Part shown: positions 3,345 to 62,849 of the stretch, in pieces
Position numbering within the stretch: the first letter of the stretch is position 1
How the letters are laid out: the number at the start of each line of letters is the position of its first letter
Assembly: GCA_947589675.1 (NCBI GenBank)
Contig: CANQCI010000002.1
Span: forward strand, 1-62,849
Direction: 5' to 3'
Length of the DNA: 62,849 nucleotides
Origin: an uncultured Bacilli bacterium
Lineage (GTDB): Bacteria; Bacillota_I; Bacilli_A; RF39; UBA660
Position numbers and translations under genes: made by a program
Notes under the pieces: model-generated
The model's input: only the letters and a program-made list of their open reading frames with translations
What the model was told of the DNA's origin: nothing
Database searches by the model: none

Positions 3345-3461
3345 GGTAGAATTTTAATTGCTGAAAAGCAAGTAAACATTGATATGGATTAGTACTTCCA
3401 GTGCCGTATGGTGAAGGGCTAAGAAGAAGTATCAAGAAGAAAAACGAAGGAGGGATAATTT

Positions 3462-5268: not shown

Positions 5269-5289
5269 TCAGAGATGATTGCTTTTTTT
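5265..5289 (+). terminator. Weak terminator-like hairpin after tsf
   Basis: gtaatc/gattgc stem (one G-U pair) followed by 7 T. Confidence 0.35.
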
Positions 5290-5324
5290 AATTTAAAAAT
5301 GGGATTTAAAATAAAGAAAAAAAA

Positions 5325-5333
5325 TGTTATAAT
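5325..5333 (+). promoter_or_regulatory. Extended -10 promoter element (TGtTATAAT)
   Basis: tgttataat lies 23 nt upstream of the TTG start at 5356. Confidence 0.4.
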
Positions 5334-5355
5334 TACTTTAAAGTGGTGAATCAGT

Positions 5356-5973: not shown

Positions 5974-5981
5974 AGGTATTT

Positions 5982-20808: not shown

Positions 20809-23561
20809 ATGAAACGAAAAGATAATAGAAAAAAATTTATTTTATTAGCAATGGCTGTTTTACTTATTACAGTAATTGGTGCCACCTATGCTTACTTCAC
20901 CGCCCAAAAGGGAAGTGGAGGTAGTGCCAATTTAACTGTTGAATCAGGAACAACTGATTCCTTACAATTCACAAATGGCAATAAAATAAATATTGTTGCT
21001 ACTCAAGATAATTTTCAAAAAGATGGTAAAATCAAAGTGGTAGCTCCAGTGTTACAGCCACTTTAACACCTAATAATACGACGAATGAAGCTAAGGATAT
21101 GTATAATGTTTATTTAGTTATTGAAGATAATGAATTTGTTTATACAACTGACGCTCATGATGCTGAATTAGTTTTAAAAGTAGTTAATCCAGCAAGCACC
21201 GAAGTAACATCCATGAATGCGGTGAAATATGTGGATGATATGGGTTTCGATATTACTGAGTTAAAGCCAGGTATATATCCGATTGTTAAAGGCTATGATA
21301 TTGAAGCTAGTGAAGAACCAAAGATAGATAATTGGGAAATTACGGTAACCTTAATAAACCTAGATAAAGATCAAAATAAGAATGCTGGTAAATCATTTAC
21401 CGGCAAAGTTTACATCACTAAAGATGATTTAAAGGAAAATGATTTAATTAAAGTTAATAGTATTACTTCTACAACGACAACAAATAGTATAAATGTTGAT
21501 TTAAAAATAGGGAATGAAATTGGACAAGTAGATAAATATTATTTTGCGATTGAAGAAACAACCGAAAAGCCAGAAGATATTCAAACGGAAAGTGTGGCTA
21601 GTGCTTTAGCTAAAGAATATACAGCAAGTCCAAAAGCTACTTATGAATTTACAACCATAAATGAAGAACCATTAAAAGCATCTCAAAATTATAAAATCTA
21701 TGGTTATGGTGTAGACACTAAGGGATTCAGAAGTAATATCTATGAAACAATTGTCACAACAGATGAATACCAAATTCCTACGATTGAAAGCATCAGTCAT
21801 GAAGAAACAGAAAATACTACAACCTTAACTATAACAGGCAATGGTGGAACTAGTAACATAAGTAAATATCAATATAGTATTGATAACAATAATTGGGTAG
21901 ATACTAATGATGCAACAGGAACTATAACAATTCCTGACCTTGAGTATAATAAAAGTTATGATATAAGAATAAGAGCTGTCGATGAACAAGGAAGATATTC
22001 CAATATTTGGGTAGAAAATATTAAAATTATAAAATTAGGAACTGAGGAATATCCTTATGAAATAAAAACTATTGATGATTTAGTTAAATTAAGTAACGAA
22101 GTTAATGAGGGAACAACTCATGCTGGAGAATACTTTAAATTAACTAATGATATAGATTTTCAAAATAAAGATAATTATGAAAGTGGGGAAATAGATTCTA
22201 ATTTAACTGAGGGTGAAGGATTTACACCAATTGGTATTTCGCCTAATAGTTTTCATGGAGTTTTAGATGGAAATAATCATATTATTAAAAACATATATAT
22301 TAGTAACAATAGCAATACTTTAGTTGGTTTATTTGGAAAAATAACAAATAGTGAAATAAAAAATTTAACTGTGGAAGGGAATATGTATCAAAACTTTAAC
22401 TCAGATATTGGGGGAATAACAGCGGTTTTAGATAATTCAGTAATTGATAATTGTACCACTAATATTAATATTGTAAATAATGTTACGGGAGCTTCGGCAG
22501 GCGGATTAGTGGGTGCAGTTATAAGCAGTGGTACTATAAAAAATAGTATTAATCGTAGTATTTTAAATACTAGTGCCACCCAAGCTGGAGGCATTGTTGG
22601 GTGTATGGCTAGAACTTCTAGTTCTCTGGAAATTAATAATTGTGTTAATGAGGGAGATATTACTAGTCCTATTAATAATATTATTGGAGGAATTATTGGA
22701 CGGGATACCTCGGAAAAAGCAACTAATTTAATAATTAAAAATTCATATAATACAGGCAATGTTACTGGTAATAGTGGTCGAGTTGGCGGAATTGCTGGGA
22801 ATTTGTATCAAAATGTTTTAATTGAAAACTGTTATAATAATGGAATAATATCTGGAGGTATTCAAGTTGGCGGAATTGTGGCAGTTAGCTCAGATGATGC
22901 TTCAACAATAATTAATAAAAGTTATAATTTAAATAATATATCATCCAATATTTCTCAAGCCCAAATTGGGGGATTAATGGGGCTTACTAGCGGTAATTCT
23001 AAAGCTATAATTTTAAATAGTTATAACCAAGGAAATATTGATACTGTTGATGCAAATGTTCCTGCCGGTTTAGTTGGCTATTTATATAATGGAACTAAGT
23101 CTATAATATTAAATTCTTATAATAAGGGTAATGTTACTAATGCGGCTGGTGAAAAATTTATAAATCCTAGTGTCAGTGGAATTTATACTATTTCAAGTAC
23201 GCATGAAAATACTATTTTAATAAATAATACATATAATTCAGGATTATTAAGTAGTACTAATAAATATGCGATAGGACTTTTTCACAATAATTCTGTGGGC
23301 TCTATTAATAATGCCTATTTTACTGAGGGTATTGTTCCGGATTATCAAAATGTAAATGAAACAAAAGTTGAAGATATTAATATGAAAGATGGAACTTTAT
23401 TAAAATATTTAAATGATAATATAGTTGATTCACAAACTTTAAAATCAGGTGAAACTAATAGCAGTTTGAGTAGTTTTGATAGCTTGCTTGCTGATTATGA
23501 ATTAGAAACTTGGAAACAAGGTAGTGATGGTTATCCAATATTAGATTATCAAAAAGAATAA
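20809..23561 (+). pseudogene. Family paralog B2 (type B) disrupted by a 1-nt deletion, or a sequencing error
   Basis: ORFs 20809-21066 and 21099-23561 are two frames of one gene. Aligned with B1 (gatggtgacaaccaaagtgat) and B3 (aatggagaaaatcaaagtgga), B2 reads gatggtaaaatcaaagtggt, one base short near 21026-21031. Restoring it gives ...DGENQSGSSSVTATLTPNNTTNEAKDMYNVY. Confidence 0.8.
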
Positions 23562-27629: not shown

Positions 27630-27680
27630 TTTTAGGGAAATTTTTTAGTTTTGAAATTAAAAATGGGAGTAGTGATTAAA

Positions 27681-29756
27681 ATGAAGAAAAAAGAAAAAAT
27701 TTTAATGTTCTTTACATTAATAGTTCTTTTGGTAGTAGTAATTGGTGCCACTTATGCTTTCTTTGCTGCTCAAAGGGGTACTGGAGGTAATGCTAATATT
27801 AATGTAGAAGCCGGAACGACTGATTCATTAACATTTACGAAAGGAAACCCCATTACCATTGATGCTAATAGTGATAATTTTAAAAGTGGTGAACCTAATC
27901 AGGAAGGGGACACCACCGTGTCAGCTCACTTAGTAGCTAACAATGGCAATTATACAGCAAGTGAAACTTATAATGTTTATTTAAATTTAATAAATAATCC
28001 ATTTGTTTACACAAAAACTGATAATCCCGAGTTAATATTACAAGTAATAGACCCAGAAGGACACCCTTTAGAAGCTTTAGAAGACACATCAATAAAGCAT
28101 GTATCACTTAATGATGTTGATGATGATGAAAATCCATTGGAAGGATTTGATATAACAACAGCCACAGGTTTAATCCCAATTAAGTTAAATGAACCAATAG
28201 AAGCTACTCCAAGTGAAGATGATAGAAATGGTAAAGCTGATGAAGAATGGCAAATAAAAATAATACTTATAAACCATGACTATGATCAACAAGTAAATAC
28301 GGGTAAAACTTTTAATGCTCAAGCTATCATAACAGCTGGAACCTTACCAAATGTTAAAGTTGAAACAGCTAATATAACAAATGATAGTATGAAAGTAATA
28401 GCAACCATTTCTGATTACGAAGATACGATTGATAAGGTCGAATTTAAGATTAATGACGATGTAGATAAAGAATGGCATCAAGCAACAGATAATAATTTAA
28501 ATGTTTATAGTTATACTTTTGATAATTTAACAGAAAATAAAAAATATGAAGTTAGTACCAAGATAAGTTTTGCTGATTCCGAAGTATTAAAGGTAATTGA
28601 AGAAAGCATATCAGCTAAAAAGACTTTAGCTGATGCTTGTCCCAACGGAGGTAACTTAGCTGAGTGTGTTATTAGCTTATATAATAAAAACAGTAACTAT
28701 GAAGATACCAAATTATATTATCATGATAATAATTTAGAAAATGGTGCCAATGATTTATCTTACCGATACACTGGAGGAGATTATGCTTTAACCGATATAG
28801 CTAAAGAAAGTTATAGTTCTATAAATGATTTGATTAAGCTAAGTTGTAATGGAATTGCATCTCCAAATAGTAATGATTATTGTTCAACAGTATCAAAATA
28901 TACATTAAGTTATAATCCTGATTTAGAAAATTTAACAACTTTAAAGCAAACTTTAAAGCAAGCAATAACTGATGGATATATAACTGATAATAATATCAAA
29001 AACTATGTTTGTTTTGGAGGAGAGTGTACCGATAAAGAAAATCTCTACCGGATAATTGGAACATTCAAAGTAGAAGATGAATATCAAATAAAGCTTGTAA
29101 AGGCTGATGAGGTTGATAAAACTTTACTTGGTGAAGATGGGGATTTTGCAAGACAAAATTCGCAAAATGCTTATAATAATTATTTAGGGAAACATTATGA
29201 TCAACCAAGATATGCTTGGAATAAAAATGGTGTGAATACGTGGAGTGAAAGTAAATTAAATACTGAAAATTTAAATACATTTTATCTTGATAAGTTAGGT
29301 GATTGGGCGAATAAAATTGCTGAAACAGCATGGCAAGTGGGAGGTATGTCCCAAAATATTGGATATGAACAAGATGTCCATACGGCTTATGAATATGAAT
29401 TAGGTGATTCAAAGAAAACTTTAACGTATTCAGGTCAAATAGGTTTAATGTATGTTAGTGATTTTTATTATGGTGCACCAAAAGATTATTGGAGTTTGCC
29501 AGGTGGTGATACTGTATCTGGTGAAGATTATCGGCTAGCCGCTTGGGATAATTGGTTATGGCTTGGTGACAATGAATGGTTTATTACCCCAACTGAAAGC
29601 ACTACAGAAGCATTTCGTACTAGTACAGTTGGAAATGTACTTAAGGTTATAGTTACAAGTGATTACTATGCTGCCCGTCCAGCATTTTATCTAAACAGTA
29701 ATGTAAGTTATATAAGGGGAACAGGAACAAGTGATGACCCAATAATAATAAGTTAA
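27681..29756 (+). CDS. Family paralog A2 (type A)
   Basis: MKKKEKILMFFTLIVLLVVVIGATYAFFAAQRGTGGNANINVEAGTTDSLTF. ATG at 27681 follows gggag. The upstream in-frame TTG 27651 and ATG 27663 lack an SD. Conserved type A C-terminus ...AARPAFYLNSNVSYIRGTGTSDDPIIIS. Confidence 0.9.
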   Translation: MKKKEKILMFFTLIVLLVVVIGATYAFFAAQRGTGGNANINVEAGTTDSLTFTKGNPITIDANSDNFKSGEPNQEGDTTVSAHLVANNGNYTASETYNVYLNLINNPFVYTKTDNPELILQVIDPEGHPLEALEDTSIKHVSLNDVDDDENPLEGFDITTATGLIPIKLNEPIEATPSEDDRNGKADEEWQIKIILINHDYDQQVNTGKTFNAQAIITAGTLPNVKVETANITNDSMKVIATISDYEDTIDKVEFKINDDVDKEWHQATDNNLNVYSYTFDNLTENKKYEVSTKISFADSEVLKVIEESISAKKTLADACPNGGNLAECVISLYNKNSNYEDTKLYYHDNNLENGANDLSYRYTGGDYALTDIAKESYSSINDLIKLSCNGIASPNSNDYCSTVSKYTLSYNPDLENLTTLKQTLKQAITDGYITDNNIKNYVCFGGECTDKENLYRIIGTFKVEDEYQIKLVKADEVDKTLLGEDGDFARQNSQNAYNNYLGKHYDQPRYAWNKNGVNTWSESKLNTENLNTFYLDKLGDWANKIAETAWQVGGMSQNIGYEQDVHTAYEYELGDSKKTLTYSGQIGLMYVSDFYYGAPKDYWSLPGGDTVSGEDYRLAAWDNWLWLGDNEWFITPTESTTEAFRTSTVGNVLKVIVTSDYYAARPAFYLNSNVSYIRGTGTSDDPIIIS

Positions 29757-29776
29757 AAATAATAAGGTGGTGAAGA

Positions 29777-31855
29777 ATGAAAAATAAAAATAAAATAATG
29801 ATTTTGGCATTGTTATTACTGTTACTAGTCGTTGTGGGAGCAACTTACGCATTCTTTGCTGCCCAAAGAGGTGCTGGAGGAAGTGCTAATATCAATGTAG
29901 AAGCAGGGACAACTGATTCCCTAACATTCACAAATGGAAGTGCGATAACCATTGATGCGAATAGTGATAACTTTAAAAGCGGCGAACCCAACCAAGAGGG
30001 AAACACTACCGTGTCAGCTCACTTGATAGCTAATAACGGTAATAACACAGCCACCGAAACTTATAATGTTTATTTAAATTTAATTAATAATCCTTTTGTT
30101 TACACGAGGACAGATAGTCCTGAGTTAATATTACAAGTAACAGACCCAGAAGGACACCCTTTAGTAGCTTTAGAGGATACATCAATAAAGCATGTATCGC
30201 TTAATGATGTTGATGAAAATGAAGATCCTCTTGAGGGATTTGATATAACAACAGCCACCGGTTTAATCACAATTAAGTTAAATGAACCAATAGAAGCTAC
30301 TCCAAGTGAAGATGATAGAAATGGTAAAGCTGATGAAGAATGGCAAATAAAAATAATACTTATTAATCATGATTATGACCAACAAGTAAATACGGGTAAA
30401 ACTTTTAATGCTCAGGCTATCATAACAGCTGGAACTTTACCAAATGTTAAAGTGGAAACAGCAGATATTACTAACGATAGTATGAAAGTGGTAGCAACAA
30501 TATCAGATTATGAAGATACGATTGACAATGTAGCATTTAAAATTAATGCTGATGAAGATGCCGATTGGCATAATGCTGATAATGATGATGCGAATGTTTA
30601 TAGTTATACCTTTGATAATTTAACAGCAAATAAAAAATATGAAGTAAGTACCAAGATAGAGCTTAATGATGATGAATTATTAAATGTTATAACTGAGAGT
30701 ACCACAGTTAAAAAGTCCATAGAAGATGCGTGCCCAAGAGGCGGGAAATTAGCTGATTGTGTAATAAGTTTATATAATAAAAACAATACATATGAAGATA
30801 CTAAATTATATTTCCATAATGGAACAATAGAAGAGGGTGACGCTGGTGATTTATCCTATCGCTTTGCAGGTGGTGACTACCAATTAACCCAAAAAGCTAA
30901 AGATGCTAAATATAATACAATTCACGATATAATCAAGTTAAATTGTGATGGCTCTGAGGCACCAAATAGTAATGATTACTGTCCAACTAATCCAATTTAT
31001 ACATTAAATTATAATCAAGATGGAACTAATTACAATACTCTTAAGGCTGTATTATACAAAGCAATAGCTGATGGTTACATAAGTGATAATAATGTTAAAA
31101 ATTTTGTTTGTTTTGGTGATGATTGTGCGGATGTCGAAAATCTATACCGGATAATTGGAGCTTTCAAAGTAGGAGAAGAATATCAAATAAAGTTAGTTAA
31201 AGCAGATGAGGTTGATAAAAATTTATTGGGAACTGATGGTGATTTTGCTAGCCAAGGTTCTCGAGGAGCTTACCATACCTATTTAAGATATCATGATGAT
31301 TATCCACGATATACTTGGAATATAAATGGTCAAGGTGTTTGGAGTGAGAGCTCCTTGAACACCCATAATTTAAACACAACCTATCTAGGAAATTTAGGTG
31401 ATTGGGCAAATTATATAGCTATGACAGAATGGCAAGTTGGAGGCATGACTTATCAAACAGGTCACCAATCAAATGCTCATACAGCCTATGAAAATGAATT
31501 AGGTGCCTCCAAAAACATTCTTACTCACCCCGCCAAAATAGGCATGATGTATGTAAGTGACTATTACTATGGAGCTTCAAAAGCTTGGTGGAGTTTACCT
31601 GGAGATGTTTCAAATTTAGAAGACTATCGAAAAGCCGCGTTAGATAATTGGACGTGGATTGGTGATAATTTTTGGCTAATAACACCAAGCACCAGTGATT
31701 CTGAGCGGGCATTTTGTGTTACATCGAATGGCTATGTTTATACGAATGTCACGACTCGAACTATCTTTGCTGTGAGACCTAGTTTTTATCTTAATTCTAA
31801 TGTGATGTATGTTCGCGGTGAGGGGACAAGCGATAATCCTATAATAATAAATTAA
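29777..31855 (+). CDS. Family paralog A3 (type A)
   Basis: SD aaggtggtga. 20-nt spacer from A2. GATYAFFAAQRGAGGSANINVEAGTTDSLTF. Conserved C-terminal domain. Confidence 0.92.
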   Translation: MKNKNKIMILALLLLLLVVVGATYAFFAAQRGAGGSANINVEAGTTDSLTFTNGSAITIDANSDNFKSGEPNQEGNTTVSAHLIANNGNNTATETYNVYLNLINNPFVYTRTDSPELILQVTDPEGHPLVALEDTSIKHVSLNDVDENEDPLEGFDITTATGLITIKLNEPIEATPSEDDRNGKADEEWQIKIILINHDYDQQVNTGKTFNAQAIITAGTLPNVKVETADITNDSMKVVATISDYEDTIDNVAFKINADEDADWHNADNDDANVYSYTFDNLTANKKYEVSTKIELNDDELLNVITESTTVKKSIEDACPRGGKLADCVISLYNKNNTYEDTKLYFHNGTIEEGDAGDLSYRFAGGDYQLTQKAKDAKYNTIHDIIKLNCDGSEAPNSNDYCPTNPIYTLNYNQDGTNYNTLKAVLYKAIADGYISDNNVKNFVCFGDDCADVENLYRIIGAFKVGEEYQIKLVKADEVDKNLLGTDGDFASQGSRGAYHTYLRYHDDYPRYTWNINGQGVWSESSLNTHNLNTTYLGNLGDWANYIAMTEWQVGGMTYQTGHQSNAHTAYENELGASKNILTHPAKIGMMYVSDYYYGASKAWWSLPGDVSNLEDYRKAALDNWTWIGDNFWLITPSTSDSERAFCVTSNGYVYTNVTTRTIFAVRPSFYLNSNVMYVRGEGTSDNPIIIN

Positions 31856-31871
31856 AAAAACGAGGCTAAAA

Positions 31872-33953
31872 ATGAAAAAAGAAAATAAAAATAAATTAAT
31901 GATATTATCGTTGTTATTACTTTTGTTGGTAGTGGTTGGTGCAACTTATGCCTTCTTTGCCGCCCAAAGGGGAGCTGGTGGAAGTGCCAATATTAATGTT
32001 GAAGCTGGAACTACCGATTCTTTAACATTCACAAATGGTAGCGCTATAACGATTGATGCAAACAGTGATAATTTTAAAAGTGGCGAACCCAACCAAGAGG
32101 GAGACACTACCGTGTCAGCTCATTTAGTAGCAAACAATGGCAATAATACAGCCACCGAAACTTATAATGTTTATTTAAATCTTGTTCAAAATCCATTTGT
32201 ATATACAAGGACAGGTAGTCCTGAGTTAATACTACAAGTAACTGACCCAGATGGTAATCCTTTACAAACTTTGGAGGATACATCAATAAAGCATGTATCA
32301 CTTAATGATGTAGATGATGAAGAAAATCCTTTGGAAGGATTTGATATAACGACAGCTACTGGTTTAATTCAAATCAAAAAAGATCAAATAATAAGTGCAA
32401 CCCCAAGTGATGATGCAACTAATGGTAAAAAAGACCAAGATTGGCAAATTAAAATAATACTTATAAACCATGACTATGACCAACAAGTAAATACAGGAAA
32501 AACCTTTAATGCTCAAGCTATCATAACAGCTGGAACCTTACCAAATGTTAAAGTGGAAACAATGAATATAACTAACGATAGTATGAAAGTAGTGGCAACA
32601 ATATCTGATTATGAAGATACAATTAATAAAGTAGAGTTCCAAATAGATGATGAAGTAGATACTGAATGGCACGAAGCAGTAGATGATGGTAATCAAGTAT
32701 ATAGTCATAAATTTGAAAGTTTAACAAGTAATAAAAAATATAATGTGAAAACGAAAGTAACTTATGAAAATTCAGAAGAATTATTAAATGTTATAACTGA
32801 GAGTACCACAGCAAAAAAGACATTAGCAGATGCTTGTCCTAGAGGTGGCAATTTGGCTGATTGCCTAATAAGTTTATATAATAAAAATAATGCTTATGAA
32901 GATACTAAGTTATATTTCCATAATGGAACAATGGATGGGCAAGATGCTAATGATCAATCATATCGATTTACAGGTGGTGACTACCAATTAACCCAAAAAG
33001 CTAAAGATGCTAAATATAGTACTATCAACGATATAATTAAATTAACTTGTAATGGAACTCTAGCTATTTTAAGTAATGATTATTGTGAAACAAATCCAAT
33101 TTATACATTAAGTTATAATCCTAGTATAGAAAATTTAACAACTTTAAAGCAGACATTAAATCAAACAATAAATGATGGTTATATAAGTGATAATAATATT
33201 AAAAACTTTGTATGCTTTGGTGACGATTGTGCAAATACTGATAATTTATATCGAATAATCGGAGCTTTCAAAGTGGATGATAAATATCAAATAAAACTAG
33301 TAAAAGCTGATGAAGCAGGTAAAGATTTACTAGGCGAAGATGGCGATTTTGCTAAATCCGGTACCGCATACAATACTTATCTTGGCAATCATAGTGAATG
33401 GCCAAGGTACACATGGGATAAAAACAGTAAAAATGTTTGGAGCGAAAGTGCCTTGAATACCTTAAATTTAAACGTTACCTACTTAGGTAAATTAGGTACT
33501 TGGTCTAACATGATTGCCATGACAGAATGGCAAGTTGGTGGTATAACAAGAGAATTAGGGCGTGAACAAGGAGCATATATCGTTTATGAAAATGAACTTG
33601 GTGATTCCAAGATTCCACTTCCACATCAAGCTAAAATTGGCATGATGTATGTTACCGATTATTATTATGGGGCTACAAAAGATAGATGGAATTTACCAGG
33701 ATACGCTGATTCAAAAGAAGATTATCGGTTAGCCGTCTGGGATAACTGGACTTGGATAGGTGATGATTTTTGGTTGATTACGCCAAGAACAGAAATTGAT
33801 TCGTACGCATTCAGTGTTAATACACGTGGACATGTGATTTCGGGTTTGACGACTTATGGTCACCTTGCCGCCCGTCCTGCATTTTATCTTAAATCCAATA
33901 TAAATTATGTAAGCGGAACGGGAACAAGTGAAGATCCAATAATAATAAGTTAA
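31872..33953 (+). CDS. Family paralog A4 (type A)
   Basis: 16-nt spacer (aaaaacgaggctaaaa). Same N- and C-terminal signatures. Confidence 0.92.
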   Translation: MKKENKNKLMILSLLLLLLVVVGATYAFFAAQRGAGGSANINVEAGTTDSLTFTNGSAITIDANSDNFKSGEPNQEGDTTVSAHLVANNGNNTATETYNVYLNLVQNPFVYTRTGSPELILQVTDPDGNPLQTLEDTSIKHVSLNDVDDEENPLEGFDITTATGLIQIKKDQIISATPSDDATNGKKDQDWQIKIILINHDYDQQVNTGKTFNAQAIITAGTLPNVKVETMNITNDSMKVVATISDYEDTINKVEFQIDDEVDTEWHEAVDDGNQVYSHKFESLTSNKKYNVKTKVTYENSEELLNVITESTTAKKTLADACPRGGNLADCLISLYNKNNAYEDTKLYFHNGTMDGQDANDQSYRFTGGDYQLTQKAKDAKYSTINDIIKLTCNGTLAILSNDYCETNPIYTLSYNPSIENLTTLKQTLNQTINDGYISDNNIKNFVCFGDDCANTDNLYRIIGAFKVDDKYQIKLVKADEAGKDLLGEDGDFAKSGTAYNTYLGNHSEWPRYTWDKNSKNVWSESALNTLNLNVTYLGKLGTWSNMIAMTEWQVGGITRELGREQGAYIVYENELGDSKIPLPHQAKIGMMYVTDYYYGATKDRWNLPGYADSKEDYRLAVWDNWTWIGDDFWLITPRTEIDSYAFSVNTRGHVISGLTTYGHLAARPAFYLKSNINYVSGTGTSEDPIIIS

Positions 33954-33973
33954 AAATAATAAGGTGGTGAAGA

Positions 33974-36064
33974 ATGAAAAAGGAAAATAAAAATAAATTA
34001 ATGATATTATCTTTGTTATTACTTTTGTTAGTTGTTGTTGGAGCTACCTATGCATTCTTTGCTGCCCAAAGAGGTGCAGGTGGTAGTGCTAATATTAATG
34101 TGGAAGCTGGAACAACTGACTCTCTAACTTTTACAAACGGAAGTGCGATAACCATTGATGCTAATAGCGATAACTTTAAAAGTGGAGAACCTAACCAAGA
34201 AGGAAACACTACCGTGTCAGCACACTTGGTAGCTAATAACGGTAATAATACAGCTACGGAAACTTATAATGTTTATTTAAATTTAATTAATAATCCATTT
34301 GTTTATACTAGAGCAGGTAGTCCTGAGTTAATATTACAAGTAATTGATCCTGATGGACAACCTTTACAAACTTTAGAAGATACATCAATAAAGCATGTAT
34401 CAATTGCTGGCGTTGATGAAAATGAAGACCCTCTTGAGGGATTTGATATAACCACAGCTACTGGTTTAATTCAGATTAAAAAAGACCAAGTAATAAGTGC
34501 AGAGCCTAGTGAGGATGAAACAAATGGTAAAAAAGACCAAGATTGGCAAATTAAAATCATCCTAATCAATCATGACTATGACCAACAAGTAAATACAGGG
34601 AAAACTTTTAATGCTCAAGCCATCATAACAGCTGGGACATTACCAAATGTTAAAGTGGAAACAATGAATATTACTAATGATAGTATGAAAGTGGTAGCAA
34701 CAATATCTGATTATGAAGATGTAATTGATAAAGTGGAATTTCAAATTGATGATGAAGTAGATACTGAATGGCATCAAGCAGAAGATGATGGTAATCAAGT
34801 ATATAGTCATATATTTTACAGTTTAACAAGTAATAAAAAATATAATGTTAAAACTAAAGTAACTTATGAAACTTCTCAAGAATTATTAAATGTGATAACT
34901 GAGAGCACCACAGTCAAAAAGACTTTAGCAGATGCTTGCCCTAATGGTGGCAATTTAGCAAAGTGTGTAATTAGTTTATATAATAAAAATAGTAATTATG
35001 AAGATACTAAATTATATTATCATGATGTAAGTTTAGATAATGGAGCTAATGATTTATCCTATCGCTTTACTGGTGGTGACTATCAATTAACCCAAAAAGC
35101 TAAAGAGGCTAAATATAATACAATTCACGATATAATCAAGTTAAATTGTAATGGTTCTCAGGCTGCTATAAGTAATGATTACTGTTCAACAAATCCAGTT
35201 TATACATTAAGTTATATTCAAAAAGGAGAAACTTATACAACTTTAAAATCAGTTTTAGTAAAAGCAATATCTGATGGTTACGTAAGTGATAATAATGTTA
35301 AAAATTATGTTTGTTTTGGTGATGATTGTGCGAATGTTGAAAATCTCTATCGGATAATCGGAGCTTTCAAAGTAGGAGAAGAATACCAAATAAAATTAGT
35401 AAAAGCTGATGAAGCGGGTAAAGATTTATTAGGTGAAGGTGGTGATTTTTCTAGTTCTGGTGCCGTGTCAGGTCCATATAATACTTATCTCGGCAATCAT
35501 AATGAATGGCCAAGATACCTATGGAATAATAGTACTAAAACCAGTACTTGGAGTGAAAGTGAGCTAAATAAACAAAATTTAAATACATTTTATTTAGATA
35601 AATTAGGAAATTGGGCTAGCCTGATTGCTGAAACTACATGGCAAGTTGGAGGTATGACTCCCCAATCAGGTAGTGAACAAGGAGTGCATGCAGCCTATGA
35701 AAGCGAACTTGGTGATGCCAAAACATCACTTCCACACCCCGCCAAAATTGGCATGATGTATGTTACTGATTATTATTATGGGGCTATAAAAGACCATTGG
35801 AGTTTACCAGGGTTTCTTACATCAACTGAGGATTATCGTCAAACTGTGTGGGATAATTGGACTTGGATTGGTGATAATGAATGGTTTATAACGCCGATAG
35901 CTGGTGATACTACGTATGCATTTGGTGTGCCTACGTATGGGTATATAACTTTATATGCGATTACAGATGCTAACTTTGCCGCCCGTCCAGCATTTTACTT
36001 AAAAAGTGATGTAAATTATGTAAGCGGAACAGGAACAAGTGATGATCCAATAATAATAAAATAA
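33974..36064 (+). CDS. Family paralog A5 (type A)
   Basis: Junction aaataataaggtggtgaaga is identical to the A2/A3 and A8/A9 junctions. Same signatures. Confidence 0.92.
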   Translation: MKKENKNKLMILSLLLLLLVVVGATYAFFAAQRGAGGSANINVEAGTTDSLTFTNGSAITIDANSDNFKSGEPNQEGNTTVSAHLVANNGNNTATETYNVYLNLINNPFVYTRAGSPELILQVIDPDGQPLQTLEDTSIKHVSIAGVDENEDPLEGFDITTATGLIQIKKDQVISAEPSEDETNGKKDQDWQIKIILINHDYDQQVNTGKTFNAQAIITAGTLPNVKVETMNITNDSMKVVATISDYEDVIDKVEFQIDDEVDTEWHQAEDDGNQVYSHIFYSLTSNKKYNVKTKVTYETSQELLNVITESTTVKKTLADACPNGGNLAKCVISLYNKNSNYEDTKLYYHDVSLDNGANDLSYRFTGGDYQLTQKAKEAKYNTIHDIIKLNCNGSQAAISNDYCSTNPVYTLSYIQKGETYTTLKSVLVKAISDGYVSDNNVKNYVCFGDDCANVENLYRIIGAFKVGEEYQIKLVKADEAGKDLLGEGGDFSSSGAVSGPYNTYLGNHNEWPRYLWNNSTKTSTWSESELNKQNLNTFYLDKLGNWASLIAETTWQVGGMTPQSGSEQGVHAAYESELGDAKTSLPHPAKIGMMYVTDYYYGAIKDHWSLPGFLTSTEDYRQTVWDNWTWIGDNEWFITPIAGDTTYAFGVPTYGYITLYAITDANFAARPAFYLKSDVNYVSGTGTSDDPIIIK

Positions 36065-36081
36065 AAATGTGATGGTGAAAC

Positions 36082-38163
36082 ATGAAAAAAGAAAATAAAA
36101 ATAAATTAGTGATTTTAGCATTGTTATTGCTGTTACTAGTCGTTGTGGGAGCAACGTATGCCTTCTTTGCTGCCCAAAGAGGTGCTGGTGGTAGTGCCAA
36201 CATTAATGTGGAAGCAGGAACAACTGATTCACTAACATTCACAAATGGTAGTGCGATAACCATTGATGCTAATAGCGACAACTTTAAAAGTGGTGAACCT
36301 AACCAAGAAGGAAACACTACCGTGTCAGCCCATTTGGTAGCGAACAACGGTAATAACACAGCCACCGAAACTTATAATGTTTATTTAAATTTAATTAATA
36401 ATCCCTTTGTATATACAAGGGCAGGTAGTCCTGAGTTAATACTACAAGTTACAGACCCAGAGGGTAATCCTTTACAAACTTTGGAGGATACATCCATACA
36501 ATATGTATCACTTAATGATGTTGATGATAACGAAAATCCTCTTGAGGGATTTGATATAACGACAGCCACAGGTTTAATCCCAATTAAGTTAAATGAACCA
36601 ATAGAAGCTACTCCAAGTGAAGATGATAACAATGGTAAAGCTGATGAAGAATGGCAAATAAAAATAATACTTATCAATCATGATTATGATCAACAAGTAA
36701 ATACCGGAAAAACATTTAATGCTCAAGCTATAATAACAGCTGGGACATTACCGAATGTTAAAGTGGAAACAATGAATATAACTAACGATAGTATGAAAGT
36801 GGTAGCAACAATATCTGATTATGAAGATACGATTGACAATGTAGCATTTAAAATTAATGCTGATGAAGATGCCGATTGGCATAATGCTGATAATGATGAT
36901 GCGAATGTTTATAGTTATACCTTTGATAATTTAACAGCAAATAAAAAATATGAAGTAAGTACCAAGATAGAGCTTAATGATGATGAATTATTAAATGTTA
37001 TAACTGAGAGTACCACAGCAAAAAAGACTTTAGCAGATGCGTGTCCCAATGGAGGTAATTTGGCAGAGTGTGTAATTGGCTTATACAATAAAAATAGTAA
37101 CTATGAGGATACCAAATTATATTATCATGATAGTAATTTAGAAGATGGAGCAAATGACTTATCCTATCGCTTTACTGGTGGTGATTACCAATTAACTCAA
37201 AGAGCTAAAGATGCTCAATATAAAACTATCAATGATATAATCAAATTAAATTGTAATGGTTCTGCGTCATCAAATAGTAATGATTATTGTGGAACTAATC
37301 CAGTTTATAAATTAAGTTATAATCAAAATGATGAACCTTATTTAACTTTAAAATCAGTTTTAACTAAAGCAATAGCTGATGGTTACATAAGTGATAATAA
37401 TGTTAAAAATTTTGTTTGTTTTGGTGATGATTGTGCGGATGTCGAAAATTTATACCGGATAATTGGAGCTTTTAAAGTGGGGGAAGAATATCAAATAAAA
37501 TTGGTAAAAGCAGATGAAGCTGGTGAGGATTTATTGGGGAAAGATGGTGATTATGCTAGTTCTGGGACTAGAGCTGCATATAATACCTATTTAGGCAATC
37601 ATAATGAATGGCCAAGGTATACTTGGGATAAAAATGGTAAAAATGTCTGGAGTGATAGTGCCTTGAATACCCAAAATTTAAACATAACCTACCTTGGTAA
37701 ATTAGGTACATGGGCGAACATTATTGCGAGTACCACTTGGCAGGTTGGAGGAATGACCTATCCTTTAGGCTATGAACAAGGAGCATACACAGCTTATGAA
37801 AATGAATTAGGTAGTGCCAAAACTCCACTTACTCATCCAGCAAAAATAGGTTTGATGTATGTTACTGATTATTATTATGGAGCTACAAAAGATTATTGGA
37901 GTTTGCCAGGATTTGTATCAAATTTACAAGATTATCGATTAGCCACATGGGATAATTGGACTTGGATTGGTGATGATTTTTGGTTTATTACTCCCCGAAC
38001 CGACATCTCCACGCACGCATTCCGTGCTAGTGCGAATGGGGCTGTGGCTACGGATTTGACGACTTATGCTAGCCGTGCAGCTCGACCAAGTTTTTATCTC
38101 AACTCTAATGTGATGTATGTAAGTGGAATAGGAACAAGTGAAGATCCAATAATAATAAAATAA
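36082..38163 (+). CDS. Family paralog A6 (type A)
   Basis: Junction aatgtgatggtgaaac is shared with A6/A7. The middle module is 236/237 nt identical to A3. Confidence 0.92.
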   Translation: MKKENKNKLVILALLLLLLVVVGATYAFFAAQRGAGGSANINVEAGTTDSLTFTNGSAITIDANSDNFKSGEPNQEGNTTVSAHLVANNGNNTATETYNVYLNLINNPFVYTRAGSPELILQVTDPEGNPLQTLEDTSIQYVSLNDVDDNENPLEGFDITTATGLIPIKLNEPIEATPSEDDNNGKADEEWQIKIILINHDYDQQVNTGKTFNAQAIITAGTLPNVKVETMNITNDSMKVVATISDYEDTIDNVAFKINADEDADWHNADNDDANVYSYTFDNLTANKKYEVSTKIELNDDELLNVITESTTAKKTLADACPNGGNLAECVIGLYNKNSNYEDTKLYYHDSNLEDGANDLSYRFTGGDYQLTQRAKDAQYKTINDIIKLNCNGSASSNSNDYCGTNPVYKLSYNQNDEPYLTLKSVLTKAIADGYISDNNVKNFVCFGDDCADVENLYRIIGAFKVGEEYQIKLVKADEAGEDLLGKDGDYASSGTRAAYNTYLGNHNEWPRYTWDKNGKNVWSDSALNTQNLNITYLGKLGTWANIIASTTWQVGGMTYPLGYEQGAYTAYENELGSAKTPLTHPAKIGLMYVTDYYYGATKDYWSLPGFVSNLQDYRLATWDNWTWIGDDFWFITPRTDISTHAFRASANGAVATDLTTYASRAARPSFYLNSNVMYVSGIGTSEDPIIIK

Positions 38164-38181
38164 AAAATGTGATGGTGAAAC

Positions 38182-50280: not shown

Positions 50281-50691
50281 GTGTTAGAAAGTTTAAAAAT
50301 ATTAAATGGGCAAATGAGTCCCAAGTTTGATAAATATACCAATGTTTATACCGTTTCAGTGGCAACCGATATTACTAAGTTAGCTTTAGACTTTTCTTCT
50401 TCGAAAGGGTATACAGTCGAAATTCTTGGTAATGAGGATTTACAAGAGGGCGAAAATATCGTTAGTATTGTGTTAGCTAATGGCGAAGAACAAAATACGT
50501 ATATGATTTATGTTAATAAAGAAGAAAGTAAAGAGGCTTTAGGCGTAGCCACCAATTACGGGGAAGCACTTGAAGTAAAAAAGGAAGTACCTAATTATGT
50601 GGCTCCCTTGCTAGGTGGGACATGCTTTTTAATAATTTTACTAACCTTTGTTATTCTTTTTCATAAAAAGAAACAAAAAAAGAAACTATAA
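50281..50691 (+). CDS. Cadherin-like beta-sandwich domain protein with a C-terminal TM anchor
   Basis: GTG immediately after the hemW stop. LESLKILNGQMSPKFDKYTNVYTVSV...NIVSIVLANGEEQNTYMIYVNK has the Cadherin-like (CHU_C/Cadherin_2-type) pattern. C-terminal LLGGTCFLIILLTFVILF followed by a KK tail. Confidence 0.65.
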   Translation: MLESLKILNGQMSPKFDKYTNVYTVSVATDITKLALDFSSSKGYTVEILGNEDLQEGENIVSIVLANGEEQNTYMIYVNKEESKEALGVATNYGEALEVKKEVPNYVAPLLGGTCFLIILLTFVILFHKKKQKKKL

Positions 50692-50849
50692 ACGGACAAT
50701 GGTGAAAGACTAAAGGACAAAATATATAATTTTGAAATACGGTTTACAATTGAAACAAACTAAAAGGCACATACAACATATAAAAAATATCAGAATAAAG
50801 AAAAAAATACAAATAGGAGCTGTCAAAAAGTTAGTGATTAATTTCTTTC

Positions 50850-50879
50850 GAGAGTTTTTTTTGCCAAAGCTCTCTTTTT
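50850..50879 (+). terminator. Rho-independent terminator
   Basis: gagagtttt/aaagctctc stem followed by ttttta, about 160 nt after the stop at 50691. Confidence 0.55.
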
Positions 50880-50984
50880 ATTGTGGCAGAATATAAATAT
50901 AATGTATTAAAATTAGGACTAGAAGCATAATATATAATATATATTAGATTTATATAAAATATAATATATTACACATGTAATAAC

Positions 50985-51013
50985 TTGACATTTTATATAC
51001 ACTATGTTATTAT
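50985..51013 (+). promoter_or_regulatory. SigA-type promoter of relB-yafQ (TTGACA-17-TATTAT)
   Basis: Consensus -35 at 50985-50990 and -10 at 51008-51013. AT-rich palindromic tracts (aatatataatatatatt) lie just upstream. Confidence 0.6.
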
Positions 51014-51036
51014 TTTAACTATGAAAGAGGTGTATT

Positions 51037-51318
51037 ATGAAAAGTTTAACAACGGCTATAAGCGTCCAAATAGATAAACAAGACAAAGAGTTAGCAACTG
51101 GTATTTTAAATAATTTAGGGTTAAATATGAGTACATACATCAATATGGCAATAAAACAATTAATTAATAAAGACGGCGTGCCTTTTGAAGTAGTAAACCC
51201 TAGACCAAGTAAAGAATTACTTGAGGCAATCCAAGAGGGCGAAGATATACTAAACGGAAAAGTAAAAGCAAAAAGTTATACTAATATGTACGAAATGTTA
51301 AAGGATTTAAAGTCTTAA
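51037..51318 (+). CDS. RelB/DinJ-family antitoxin
   Basis: ISVQIDKQDKELATGILNNLGLNMSTYINMAIKQLINKDGVPFEV. The toxin gene follows 1 nt after the stop. Confidence 0.85.
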   Translation: MKSLTTAISVQIDKQDKELATGILNNLGLNMSTYINMAIKQLINKDGVPFEVVNPRPSKELLEAIQEGEDILNGKVKAKSYTNMYEMLKDLKS

Positions 51319-51319
51319 T

Positions 51320-51625
51320 ATGTTTAATTTAGAAAATACCAAGTACCACGTACAGTATACTAGCCGATTTAAAAAAGAATTTAAAAAAATTTTAAAACAA
51401 GGAAAAGACGAAAACTTATTTTTAGAGGTACTTAGCGTTATAGCAAACGGCGAAGAATTAGCCGAAAAGTATAAAAATCATAAACTAATAAATGATAAAA
51501 CTTTTAAAGAGTGTTACGAATGTCATATACAACCCGATTGGCTATTAGTTTATAAAGTACAAAATGATGAATTAGTATTATTGCTTTTTGCAACTGGTAG
51601 TCATAGTGACTTATTTAATAAATAG
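51320..51625 (+). CDS. yafQ: YafQ-family (RelE superfamily) mRNA interferase toxin
   Basis: FKKEFKKILKQGKD...KNHKLINDKTFKECYECHIQPDWLLVYKVQNDELVLLLFATGSHSDLF matches the YafQ pattern ...H.L.G....ECHI.PDWLLIY....L.L.RTGSHSDLF. Confidence 0.85.
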   Translation: MFNLENTKYHVQYTSRFKKEFKKILKQGKDENLFLEVLSVIANGEELAEKYKNHKLINDKTFKECYECHIQPDWLLVYKVQNDELVLLLFATGSHSDLFNK

Positions 51626-51702
51626 AGGATATAGAGAAGAACTACTTAAAAAGTAATTACTCTAAATGGAAGTAAAAATTCAGTGCTTACTAGGACAAAA
51701 AA

Positions 51703-59390: not shown

Positions 59391-59868
59391 AATTACCCTG
59401 ATTGGAAATTGGTTGGTTAGGAAAGTTAGCGTGATTGCTAGCTTTTTTTCATATATTCGACAAATTTGGCTAAAATACGCCAAAAATCGACAATTGTTTT
59501 GCTTGCCTTTTTTAATAAAATGGGTTTATGATAGAAACATTCCCTTAAAAAAGGGAAACGAAAGAGGTGAATATACATATGGCGAAAAAAATGCCCAACT
59601 TAATGACCGACACAGCCTTTAAAAAAATTTTTAATAATCCCGACATGATGGATTATATTGGGGCTATTATGGAAACCATTATCCATGAGAAAGTAAATCT
59701 TCAAGATATTTGTATCAAAAATACGGATATCTTAACCAAGTCATTTACTCCCGAAAGAGGTAAAATCACAGATGCTTACTTTACTTATAATAACTATCAT
59801 ATATTATTAGAAGCTAATAATTCCTATTATAAAGAATTATATAATTTAAAAATAAGATATGAATTTGC
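59389..59868 (+). repeat. Direct repeat copy 1 (vestigial gene 3' end, intergenic region, 5' part of an Rpn/PDDEXK_2 gene)
   Basis: Nearly identical to 62384-62849, apart from 11-nt, 2-nt and 1-nt indels and a few substitutions. The true extent is unknown because copy 2 runs off the window. Confidence 0.9.
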
Positions 59869-60436
59869 TTTATTTAATAATAGTTATAAATCAGGGGAAG
59901 ATAATAATAATGATAATATCTTTATTCTAGTAAATATCAATAATTTTAAAATTGGTAATAAAGGAAGAAGAGAATATTATTATCGAGATGAACAAGAAAT
60001 AATATTAACAGATAAGTTAAAAGTAATTAACATAGGACTTGATGATATCAAAGAAAAATGGGATAATGGAGGTACATTAAGTAGACAAGAACAACTATTT
60101 TTGTTCTTGAAAATAAATCACGAAGATGAAGAATATGTTCAAAAATTAATTGAAGGAGATGAAATATTAATGACGCTATACGAACAAATAAAAAATTTAA
60201 GTGATGATGATGTTTTGGAAGCTTTATTTGATAAAGAGGAAGAAGATGCTTTAGAATTAAAGTATATAAAAAAACATGAACGAGAAGAAGGTATTAGTGA
60301 GGGTAAAAAAGAAAATAAAATTGAAATGATAAAAAATATGCTAAAAGAACATGCTTCTTTAGAATTTATAACTAAAGTATCTAATACTCCAATTGAAGAA
60401 ATAAAAGAAATAGAACGAGGATTAGCTGTGCAATAA
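59579..60436 (+). CDS. PD-(D/E)XK nuclease family transposase-like / Rpn-family recombination-promoting nuclease
   Basis: MAKKMPNLMTDTAFKKIFNNPD...KITDAYFTYNNYHILLEAN is the PDDEXK_2 N-terminal pattern. ATG at 59579 has aaagaggtga upstream. The GTG at 59567 in the ORF track lies inside the SD. Confidence 0.75.
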   Translation: MAKKMPNLMTDTAFKKIFNNPDMMDYIGAIMETIIHEKVNLQDICIKNTDILTKSFTPERGKITDAYFTYNNYHILLEANNSYYKELYNLKIRYEFALFNNSYKSGEDNNNDNIFILVNINNFKIGNKGRREYYYRDEQEIILTDKLKVINIGLDDIKEKWDNGGTLSRQEQLFLFLKINHEDEEYVQKLIEGDEILMTLYEQIKNLSDDDVLEALFDKEEEDALELKYIKKHEREEGISEGKKENKIEMIKNMLKEHASLEFITKVSNTPIEEIKEIERGLAVQ

Positions 60437-60451
60437 AAAGAAAAAAATTAA

Positions 60452-60479
60452 ACTGTCAAGTATGTCAACTAACTGTCAA
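60452..60479 (+). promoter_or_regulatory. Three direct TGTCAA(C/G) repeats at about 10-bp spacing, upstream of the poly-T tract
   Basis: TGTCAA at 60454, 60463 and 60474. ACTGTCAA at 60452 and 60472 are exactly 20 bp apart. Confidence 0.35.
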
Positions 60480-60484
60480 CTTGA

Positions 60485-60502
60485 TTTTTTTTTTTTTTTT
60501 TT
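60485..60502 (+). repeat. Homopolymeric T18 tract inside the putative promoter spacer of the type D gene
   Basis: TTGATT (60481-60486), T-run to 60502, GA, then TAGTAT (60505-60510). About 25 nt upstream of the SD gagggg and the ATG at 60536. Confidence 0.9.
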
Positions 60503-60535
60503 GATAGTATGCCTTAGAATGAGGGGATGTATTTT

Positions 60536-62404
60536 ATGAAAAAATCTAGAAAAGAAAAAGGTTTAATTATGTTTACATTGTTTACACTTTCACTTGTCAT
60601 AATTGGAGCAACCTATGCTTATTTTACCGCTCAAAAAGGAACGGGTGGCAGTGCTAATTTAACGGTGCAAGCTGATACTACTGATAATTTATCTTTTAGT
60701 GCGGAGGATGGCATTACCATAAATGCAACAAGTGATAACTTTAAATCGGGCGGTTCTAATTTAGATGGAGAAACTACGGCAACAGCAACCTTGATAGCTA
60801 ATAATACGACTCATTTAGCCACCGAACATTACAATGTTTATCTAGTAATTGATACAAATGATTTGACTTATACAGAAGAAGAAAATCCTGAGTTATTATT
60901 AACGGTTTATGATGAAAATGATGAAGAAATAAAAACGGGAATAGATGGACTTGAATATAAGGAAAATATTCAAGGAGTAAGTGGTTTTGATATCACTGAT
61001 AAAGAAAATAGTTTTACTTTATCAGATAATAATGAGATTAAAGTGGAAGAAAAAGATGCTGGTCAAAAAGAGGAAACTTGGAAAATAAAAGTAACCTTAA
61101 TAAATTATGAATATGACCAACAAGTAAATACAGGAAAAACATTTCATGCTGGATTAGTAATAACCAAAGATAATTTAGAGTCTTATAAAATAACCAAAGT
61201 AACTGGTGCCACAGTTAAAAGATTATCCAATAGTTTAACCGCAACATTAGAGGTAGAAGAAGGAAATCAACAAGTTGAGGGATATTATTTTGCTAAAGAA
61301 GAAATAGGAGCTGTTACAACTGTTGCCAATGTAGATGAATATACCAGTCATGAATACATAAAAAGTGAAACCAATACTTATACATTTAATGATTTAAAAG
61401 AAAATACCAATTATAAAATATATAGTTATGCCCAAGATATCAATGGTTTTAAAAGTCCAGTTTATGTAACAGATTTAATAGCAACAGAGAAGATCTATAC
61501 TTTTACTTATACCGGAAATGAACAAGAATTTGTGCCTCCTCAAGATGGAATATATAAAATTGAATTATGGGGTGCAAGTGGAGGTGAAAATGCTAATATT
61601 CGTCCTGATAGCGTAGGTAGAGGTGCTTATACTGTAGGTAATATAGAACTTAGTAAAGATGATTCATTATTTGTTTATGTTGGCCAAAGTGATGGAAATA
61701 ATACGGCAAATATTAGTTTTAATGGCGGAGGTAGTGGTGAAACTTCCGGAGGTGGAGCCACAGATGTACGATTAGTAAATGGAAATTGGGATTTATTTGA
61801 TTCCTTAAAGTCAAGAATAATGGTAGCCGCTGGTGGAGGCGGCGGTGCCTATAAAGATGGTATTGGCACAAATGATAATAATCAACGTGGAGATGGCGGT
61901 GGATTGTACGGCTTTGATGCTAAGTGGGAATGTAACTTACTAAATTGTGCTAATAATCCCTTTGATTATAGTGGTTATGGTGCAACACAAATCAAAGGTG
62001 GTAATCCTGGAAATGCCCATAATGATAATGAAACCCCATGCGATGAAAATTATGGTAAATTTGGAATTGGGGGAATGAGTATGGAATATTCCGGTCGCCA
62101 TATATCGTCCGGCGGAGGAGGTGGCTATTATGGCGGTGGTTATGGCTTTCATCCTGGTGGTACGTGGACTGGTGGAGGTGGCGGTTCATCTTTTATCTCA
62201 GGATATGAGGGATGTGATGCTATAACGTCAACATCGACTGAAAATGCTATTGAACATACTCATCAGTCGGTTCATTATAGTGGCAAAAAATTTACTGATG
62301 CCAACATGATTGCTGGCAATTCCCTCATGCCAACCCATGATGGTAAAAATACTATGACAGGAAATTCTGGTGATGGTTATGCCAAAATTACCTTAGTTGG
62401 TTAG
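60536..62404 (+). CDS. Family member type D: SipW-type signal and N-module, FN3-like module, ALK/LTK-like glycine-rich domain
   Basis: MKKSRKEKGLIMFTLFTLSLVIIGATYAYFTAQKGTGGSANLTVQADTTDNLSF. From about 61495, YTFTYTGNEQEFVPPQDGIYKIELWGASGG...GGGATDVRL...VAAGGGGGAY...GGGGGYYGGGYG is the bacterial glycine-rich-domain pattern. ATG at 60536 lies 9 nt after gagggg. Confidence 0.88.
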   Translation: MKKSRKEKGLIMFTLFTLSLVIIGATYAYFTAQKGTGGSANLTVQADTTDNLSFSAEDGITINATSDNFKSGGSNLDGETTATATLIANNTTHLATEHYNVYLVIDTNDLTYTEEENPELLLTVYDENDEEIKTGIDGLEYKENIQGVSGFDITDKENSFTLSDNNEIKVEEKDAGQKEETWKIKVTLINYEYDQQVNTGKTFHAGLVITKDNLESYKITKVTGATVKRLSNSLTATLEVEEGNQQVEGYYFAKEEIGAVTTVANVDEYTSHEYIKSETNTYTFNDLKENTNYKIYSYAQDINGFKSPVYVTDLIATEKIYTFTYTGNEQEFVPPQDGIYKIELWGASGGENANIRPDSVGRGAYTVGNIELSKDDSLFVYVGQSDGNNTANISFNGGGSGETSGGGATDVRLVNGNWDLFDSLKSRIMVAAGGGGGAYKDGIGTNDNNQRGDGGGLYGFDAKWECNLLNCANNPFDYSGYGATQIKGGNPGNAHNDNETPCDENYGKFGIGGMSMEYSGRHISSGGGGGYYGGGYGFHPGGTWTGGGGGSSFISGYEGCDAITSTSTENAIEHTHQSVHYSGKKFTDANMIAGNSLMPTHDGKNTMTGNSGDGYAKITLVG

Positions 62405-62849
62405 ATAAGTTAGCGAGTTTGCTAGCTTTTTTCATGTATTCGACAAATTTGGCTAAAATACGCCAAAAATCGACAATTGTTTTTCTTGCCTTTTTTAATA
62501 AAATGGGTTTATGATAGAAACATTCCTTTAAAAAAGGGAAACGAAAGAGGTGAATACATATGGCGAAAAAAATGCCCAACTTAATGAATGATATAGCCTT
62601 TAAAAAAATTTTTAATAATCCCGACATGATGCATTATATTGGAGCTATCATTGAAACCATTATCCATGAGAAAGTAAATCTTCAAGATATTTGTATCAAA
62701 AATACGGATATCTTAACCAAGTCATTTACTCCCGAAAGAGGTAAAATCACAGATGCTTACTTTACTTATAATAACTATCATATATTATTAGAAGCTAATA
62801 ATTCCTATTATAAAGAATTATATAATTTAAAAATAAGATATGAATTTGC
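62384..62849 (+). repeat. Direct repeat copy 2 (starts in the last 21 nt of the type D gene and runs to the window edge)
   Basis: See copy 1. aaaattacc..gttggttag..aagttagcg..gctagctttttt.. and everything downstream match 59389-59868. Confidence 0.9.
62560..62849 (+). CDS. Second PDDEXK_2 / Rpn-family gene, 3'-truncated by the window edge
   Basis: My own translation gives MAKKMPNLMNDIAFKKIFNNPDMMHYIGAIIETIIHEKVNLQDICIKNTDILTKSFTPERGKITDAYFTYNNYHILLEANNSYYKELYNLKIRYEF. It differs from the 59579 copy at only 4 positions. Not in the ORF track because it has no stop. Confidence 0.8.
   Translation, partial: MAKKMPNLMNDIAFKKIFNNPDMMHYIGAIIETIIHEKVNLQDICIKNTDILTKSFTPERGKITDAYFTYNNYHILLEANNSYYKELYNLKIRYEF

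Follow-up and report, generated by a model that had tools for sequence, protein, structure and literature searches.

An 18-T tract between a probable terminator hairpin and an extended -10-like element upstream of a secreted-protein family gene in an uncultured Bacilli bacterium: a candidate slipped-strand switch

The locus

The DNA analysed here, referred to throughout as the window, is an AT-rich stretch of 62,849 nt (30.6% G+C) from an uncultured Bacilli lineage, its LepA sharing 83% identity with proteins annotated as 'Bacilli bacterium' or 'bacterium'. Close to its 3' end, a 99-nt intergenic region separates a gene of the Rpn family from a member of a secreted-protein family (type D), and within it an A-rich tract, a hairpin, a run of 18 T's and promoter-like elements follow one another with partial overlaps. 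The features of the locus are the following:

59411-60436, plus strand: Rpn-family (PDDEXK_2-like) module, copy 1, comprising a 5' hairpin plus T7 (59430-59449), a promoter-like TTGCCT-18-TATGAT at 59503-59532 and the ORF at 59579-60436
60437-60452, plus strand: A-rich tract AAAGAAAAAAATTAAA, immediately 3' of the stop codon and able, according to fold prediction and inverted repeats, to base-pair with the T run
60455-60485, plus strand: hairpin of 11 pairs (4 G-C, 1 G-U), whose arms are made of three TGTCAA(G/C) repeats and ACTTGA(T)
60481-60486, plus strand: TTGATT, -35-like (4/6 positions); TTGA falls in the hairpin's conserved 3' arm, and the final TT are bases 1-2 of the tract
60485-60502, plus strand: T18 homopolymer, its first part a putative terminator tail and the remainder a candidate promoter spacer
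60502-60510, plus strand: TGaTAGTAT, extended -10-like, with TG at 60502-60503 preceding TAGTAT (60505-60510)
60515-60520, plus strand: TAGAAT, an alternative -10-like hexamer read from the sequence
60521-60526, plus strand: Shine-Dalgarno (SD) sequence GAGGGG, 9 nt ahead of the ATG
60536-62404, plus strand: type D family gene, 622 aa, with an N-terminal signal/module and a C-terminal ALK/LTK-type glycine-rich domain
62407-62432, plus strand: terminator of the type D gene, a 9-bp stem and T6, which also serves copy 2 of the Rpn module as its 5' hairpin
62395-62849, plus strand: Rpn-family module, copy 2, 94-95% identical to copy 1 and cut by the contig end

Three contigs from assemblies of the same or a closely related strain bear on this locus. 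The first, found via the dus neighbour (L005), comes from another sample and matches the window at 100% identity across 7.3 kb; the second (L006) is a contig from the same sample as L005; and the third (L013) belongs to a sister strain found via its 99%-identical LepA, is 97.5% identical to the window and stops before the T18 locus. Each of them breaks in or beside the Rpn repeat, the dus contig within it. In the window, the linkage of dus to the T18 tract and the type D gene likewise passes through this repeat of ~1 kb, where two other assemblies break.

The type D gene and its family

The gene downstream of the tract had been described in an earlier note as a secreted family member. In agreement with this description, its product carries an N-terminal signal-like module (…GATYA(Y/F)F.AQ(K/R)G.GGSA…) that is common to at least 15 paralogs in the window, together with a weak match to the SipW-type signal TIGR04088 (15 bits, under the cutoff of 19). 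The C-terminal half of the protein matches ALK_LTK_GRD with an E value of 9e-48. Protein identity among the D paralogs ranges from 67 to 86%, and the type D protein itself is present on a single contig only. Exact-protein look-ups of this protein and of its nearest homologs, P0002-P0004 and P0125, returned nothing on record, and scans of viral collections gave no match. A scan of a genome collection with the type D protein retrieved four distant relatives only, which sit in Bacilli or Tenericutes MAGs and none of which has an A/T tract of 10 nt or longer. In a distant Bacilli MAG (contig L002), the match to the glycine-rich-domain gene is split across two frames (4975-6258 and 6798-8138), and a G10 run (6835-6844) lies near the 5' end of one ORF fragment; this run is possibly a coding-region slippage tract.

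The family to which the type D gene belongs also occupies a large part of the window outside this locus. At least 13 paralogous secreted-protein genes form a tandem array at 15817-46323, within which nine genes of ~693 aa (27651-46323) are separated by gaps of only 16-22 nt and share near-identical N-termini and the C-terminal motif DPIII(x). One family gene (20809-23561) looks split, its signal/N-terminal module (ATG at 20809) being out of frame with an ORF at 21099-23561 that starts mid-protein, and it is probably a frameshifted pseudogene or the product of a sequencing error. The family gene that comes first in the window, a truncated one, contains repeated protein domains, encoded by a 225-nt unit present in 3.6 tandem copies (1583-2389; 76% matches).

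The T18 tract as an outlier

The 18 consecutive T's reported in the earlier note at 60485-60502 are found at exactly these coordinates and at this length, a count that comes from a short-read metagenome assembly and could be wrong by 1-2 bases. The tract is the sole homopolymer longer than 9 in the 62.8 kb of the window, the next longest A/T run being 9, and extrapolation of the run-length distribution gives ~5e-5 expected runs of 18 or more. In the related loci L005, L006, L012 and L013, homopolymers reach a length of 8 at most. As the earlier note had also proposed, no other family gene in the window is preceded by such a tract, nor by any other long homopolymer or simple repeat. Between the window and the 97.5%-identical strain, homopolymer runs of up to 8 are identical over the 11.9 kb compared; since these runs are unchanged between strains, ordinary runs appear to be stable, and T18 is not accounted for by a general homopolymer drift.

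The hairpin and its tail

The tract begins at the final stem position of the hairpin (60485), that is, directly 3' of the stem. The hairpin starts 19 nt past the stop codon of the Rpn-family gene (TAA, 60434-60436), and its predicted folding energy is -8.1 kcal/mol (z -2.07). All intergenic T runs in the window were checked for a hairpin lying flush upstream, and this survey gave six other terminator-like sites, located 15-55 nt past stop codons and carrying tails of T5-T8, with folding energies between -5.5 and -11.1 kcal/mol. Since its energy and position match those of the six other sites, the hairpin is ordinary and only its tail is abnormal: T18 is 10 T's longer than any other terminator tail in the 62.8 kb. 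The features of an intrinsic terminator are thus present, namely a stable hairpin soon after a stop codon, a T run flush with its 3' side and conservation of the unit in another copy (see below), and the hairpin at 60455-60485 is probably the intrinsic-terminator stem of the upstream Rpn-family gene. Pairing of the A-rich tract with the T tract can additionally give the region a bidirectional-terminator-like shape.

The arms of this hairpin contain the three TGTCAA(C/G) repeats that the earlier note had listed at 60454, 60463 and 60474, and all three are found there. On the plus strand of the window TGTCAA occurs 16 times and TGTCAA(C/G) five times, three of each at this site. The earlier note had further called these repeats phased; their positions stand, and hairpin arms are a likelier explanation for them than a regulator site. 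Two other roles for the element were considered and rejected. As a regulon site common to the family promoters, TGTCAA(C/G) would be expected upstream of other genes, and it is found in no other upstream region of the window. A role as the closing segment of the Rpn module is excluded by another copy of the module (L012), whose homology to the window runs up to the Rpn stop codon and gives way there to another hairpin.

A second copy of the hairpin element is present in L006 (2029-2078), 90% identical over 50 nt (E 3e-11) and the only significant match of the region. This copy is laid out as A8, the same hairpin and T6, with flanks that cannot be aligned to the window, and its TGTCAA cores are conserved except for one T-to-C change in the second repeat. 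The 49 nt between the T6 and the end of the contig, which open with GTACG…, contain no -10 box and no start codon. The T6 of L006 and the T18 of the window belong to paralogous copies, not to alleles, and the same hairpin followed by T6 shows that the tail length after the element differs between copies. The usual form of the hairpin element is, as read from these two copies, a standard terminator, and the tract in the window a terminator tail grown by ~10-12 T's: a hairpin like those of other terminators and a paralogous copy ending in T6 together point to T18 as an expanded terminator tail.

Beyond these loci, a metagenome scan for the hairpin element returned four chance matches in high-GC contigs and nothing else. 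Rfam has no family at the hairpin/tract region and no tRNA was found; sub-threshold matches to mir-1252 and rli61 were set aside, as they merely echo the succession of an A run, a hairpin and a U run.

The candidate promoter of the type D gene

The earlier note had read TTGATT (60481-60486) and TAGTAT (60505-60510) as promoter elements separated by an 18-nt spacer, with an SD sequence and the ATG (60536) shortly downstream. The sequences and positions are all as stated there, the distance from the end of TAGTAT to the ATG being ~26 nt, and the reading as a promoter is plausible. An additional element, which that note lacks, is the TG at 60502-60503 that turns TAGTAT into an extended -10-like sequence. 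The only -10-like hexamers in the 99-nt intergenic region are TAGTAT and TAGAAT. If TAGAAT served as the -10, the -35 zone would fall within the tract and the transcript would start past the SD, which makes this option less likely. As the 99 nt hold no further -10-like hexamer, any promoter that the type D gene has of its own overlaps the tract.

By motif alone, this candidate promoter is weak. TTGATT and TAGTAT agree with the consensus at 8/12 positions, and the pair is missing from the output of a consensus scan. A loose pattern, TTGNNN-N16-18-(TGn)TANNNT, occurs 12 times in the window versus 10 +/- 3.3 times in Markov simulations and is not enriched; four of the 12 matches fall in the intergenic 8% of the sequence, each just upstream of a gene. 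Other intergenic promoter-like sites in the window (3324, 15770, 27548, 50985, 52341 and 59503) are built in the same manner, with TTGxxx, 17-18 nt, often TGn, TAnnnT and a short leader. A terminator that runs into an extended -10 is also found at 3338-3352, where a hairpin and T7 are followed by TGGTAGAAT upstream of the gene at 3462. TTGATT-18-TGaTAGTAT is likely to be the only plausible promoter in the intergenic region, built like the other promoter candidates here. In this arrangement every T of the tract contributes one nt of spacer, for a current length of 18. The optimum spacer is 17 nt, and 18 nt lies within the working range.

A proposed route from terminator tail to promoter spacer

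These observations can be arranged into a mechanism by which the tract would vary the expression of the type D gene. The segment 60437-60502, comprising the A-rich tract, the 11-bp hairpin and the T run, would be the intrinsic terminator of the Rpn-family gene, with a tail expanded from the usual 5-8 T's to 18. The type D promoter would abut this terminator, as promoters do elsewhere in this genome, and because of this arrangement the expanded tail would now make up the entire spacer of a sigma-A-type promoter, TTGATT-n-TGaTAGTAT, in which n is the T count. Transcription would be expected to start at ~60516-60518, giving a leader of ~19 nt that contains GAGGGG. Since 18 identical bases slip at replication, the population should hold cells with T16-T20; type D transcription would proceed from spacers of 17-18 nt and would fall or cease at other lengths, and termination of the Rpn-family gene would be unaffected by tract length.

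As the tract occupies the sole promoter place and its T count equals the spacer length, it is plausible that slippage drives variable expression of the type D gene. Two features of a promoter-spacer homopolymer switch are observed directly, namely an outlier tract and a target gene that belongs to a surface/secreted multigene family. The whole chain, from terminator tail through spacer slippage to variable type D expression, is one that we regard as evenly poised between holding and failing; it predicts that tract length is heterogeneous in the population, that transcription starts at the position given above and that expression varies with the number of T's. Two further points could soften the outcome. 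Owing to the TG of its extended -10, the promoter may hardly depend on the -35, in which case the effect of tract length would be small or graded. Additionally, read-through from the Rpn promoter could add to type D expression.

If the tract switches, it would be a first hint of Mycoplasma-style promoter slippage varying a secreted protein in uncultured small-genome gut Bacilli; to our knowledge, nothing of this sort has been described in this lineage. A real switch would bear on what host and phages encounter at the surface of these very common, unstudied commensals, and would illustrate a cheap origin for such a device, in which a terminator tail abutting the next promoter simply expands. 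Since the mechanism is textbook and entails no new principle, the value of the locus would lie mainly in its being a well-defined and easily testable case.

Alternative explanations

The strongest competitor, somewhat unlikely in our view, is that the tract is a terminator tail only. The extra T's would then be neutral, perhaps the outcome of a recent slippage expansion, and transcription of the type D gene would rely on read-through or on an extended -10 that needs no -35. This possibility was raised in the earlier note as the U-tail of a weak terminator, and most of it stands: the hairpin is placed and energised like the other terminators, and its L006 copy ends in T6 with neither a -10 box nor a start codon in the 49 nt to the contig end. 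The weakness of the promoter relative to the consensus points the same way, as does the TG motif, which could remove the need for a -35. The word "only" is what fits poorly. The tail extends 10-12 T's beyond what termination needs, exceeding every other tail or run in the 62.8 kb by ~10, and the surplus falls exactly at the promoter spacer, where it gives a length of 18, inside a narrow working range. Moreover, neither this sample nor the 11.9 kb of the sister strain has any other long neutral homopolymer.

In a second explanation, which we consider unlikely, the extended -10 alone would be the promoter, and the tract would act as a rheostat by adjusting how far, and in what helical phase, this -10 lies from either an activator site made of the TGTCAA repeats or a UP-like A-rich tract, so that output would be periodic with tract length. 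A precedent exists in the T tract of Helicobacter pylori sabA, for which such a mechanism has been demonstrated (PMC4081817). At the present locus, the three TGTCAA(G/C) repeats are spaced 9 and 11 nt apart, about one helical turn, L006 retains their cores bar the single T-to-C change, and an A-rich tract does lie upstream. Against this reading, the hairpin arms fully account for the same bases, TGTCAA(C/G) is upstream of no other gene in the window, and the L006 element is followed by no -10 box or start codon in the 49 nt before its contig ends.

Least probable, and very improbable in our estimate, is an artefact of assembly or sequencing, with a true tract that is short or a junction that is chimeric in a locus embedded in ~1 kb repeats: homopolymers are prone to error, three other assemblies of the same or a close strain break in or beside the Rpn repeat, as does the contig of the window, which stops inside copy 2, but the flanks are coherent as a unit (stop codon, hairpin, T run, -10, SD and ATG), the hairpin adjoining the tract was assembled independently in L006, and artefactual homopolymers usually lie at contig ends rather than in the interior.

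Comparison with known systems

For the preferred reading, a spacer homopolymer that varies promoter geometry, the closest formal analogue is the vlp system of Mycoplasma hyorhinis, in which one-base changes in a poly(A) spacer alter spacer length and switching has been demonstrated. In both cases a pure A:T homopolymer (~17-20 nt in vlp) fills the spacer between the -35 and the -10 in an AT-rich genome of the Bacilli/Mollicutes type, and the genes concerned belong to a surface-protein multigene family. The two differ in that each vlp gene has its own tract, whereas here one of at least 15 family genes has one; in addition, the tract considered here doubles as the terminator tail of the upstream gene, and its switching is a prediction from the sequence.

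Repeats in promoter spacers also give graded or on/off expression of surface proteins from porA and opc in Neisseria meningitidis and from hifA/B in Haemophilus influenzae. These systems share with the present locus a simple-sequence repeat between the -35 and the -10; unlike it, they use poly-G/C or TA repeats, occur in Gram-negative pathogens and show no overlap with a terminator. In Bordetella pertussis fim2/fim3, a poly-C run lies between an upstream protein-binding site, occupied by the activator BvgA, and the -10, and its length sets the distance between the two. Here too a homopolymer separates upstream repeats from a -10, but whereas the activator of fim2/fim3 is known, no binder is known for the repeats of this locus, which also form the arms of a hairpin.

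In H. pylori sabA, slipped-strand mispairing varies the length of a T tract, which changes RNA polymerase binding and tunes transcription, variants from T1 to T21 having been tested (Aberg et al., 2014; PMC4081817). That tract lies upstream of the -35 and adjoins it, where it aligns UP-like elements and produces a multiphasic output (PMC4081817). The two loci are alike in having an intergenic T tract of similar length beside promoter elements, sabA encoding an adhesin; they differ in the position of the tract, which here lies between the -35-like and the -10-like elements. Finally, the locus resembles Rho-independent terminators of the A-tract/hairpin/T-tract kind in its A-rich run, its hairpin 19 nt past the stop codon, its flush T run and an energy typical of this window. 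It departs from them in its tail of 18 T's, where the six other terminator-like sites of the window have 5-8 and the paralogous element in L006 has T6.

Rpn modules and strain-variable segments

The Rpn-family ORF upstream of the tract has a full-length match to TIGR01784 at 46.7 bits, under the cutoff of 52.1, and a 52%-identical homolog of its product, P0123, passes PF12784 (PDDEXK_2). On these profile matches, the gene at 59579-60436 is a divergent member of the Rpn family (PDDEXK_2-like). The module that contains it is ~1 kb long, opens with the hairpin AAGTTAGCGnGnTTGCTAGC and T6-7 and closes at its own stop codon. Copies follow dus, the type D gene and a type A gene, the last of these in another sample (L012 2048-3036; 93% identical to copy 1). 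Additionally, L006 holds a truncated Rpn copy and an inverted remnant of the Rpn ORF (1618-1759 and 1887-1940).

In the window the order is Rpn, D, Rpn. Cluster data for sister contigs of the same assembly place two Rpn proteins with the D paralog P0003, and P0125 with the D paralog P0002. Right after the dus stop codon, at 59391-59420, lies a remnant of a type D 3' end (AAAATTACC…GTTGGTTAG; compare 62380-62404), which suggests that a D gene was once deleted or recombined away at this site. Speculatively, type D genes and near-identical Rpn modules of ~1 kb form an alternating array that could point to a recombination-based layer of variation. A fuller version of this idea would have two layers, with recombination-promoting Rpn modules driving the exchange, deletion or inversion of D cassettes and T18 switching expression of whichever D copy stands first in the array; we consider this combined scheme quite improbable.

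Another difference between strains lies elsewhere in the window. A segment of ~1 kb at 50686-51696 is present here and absent from the 97.5%-identical L013. It carries genes for a RelB antitoxin (51037-51318; PF04221, E 1e-11) and a YafQ toxin (51320-51625; PF15738, E 2e-27), preceded by a promoter-like site at 50985 (TTGACA-17-TGn-TATTAT), and, judged by its gene content and by the alignment of the two strains, it is a strain-variable toxin-antitoxin insertion.
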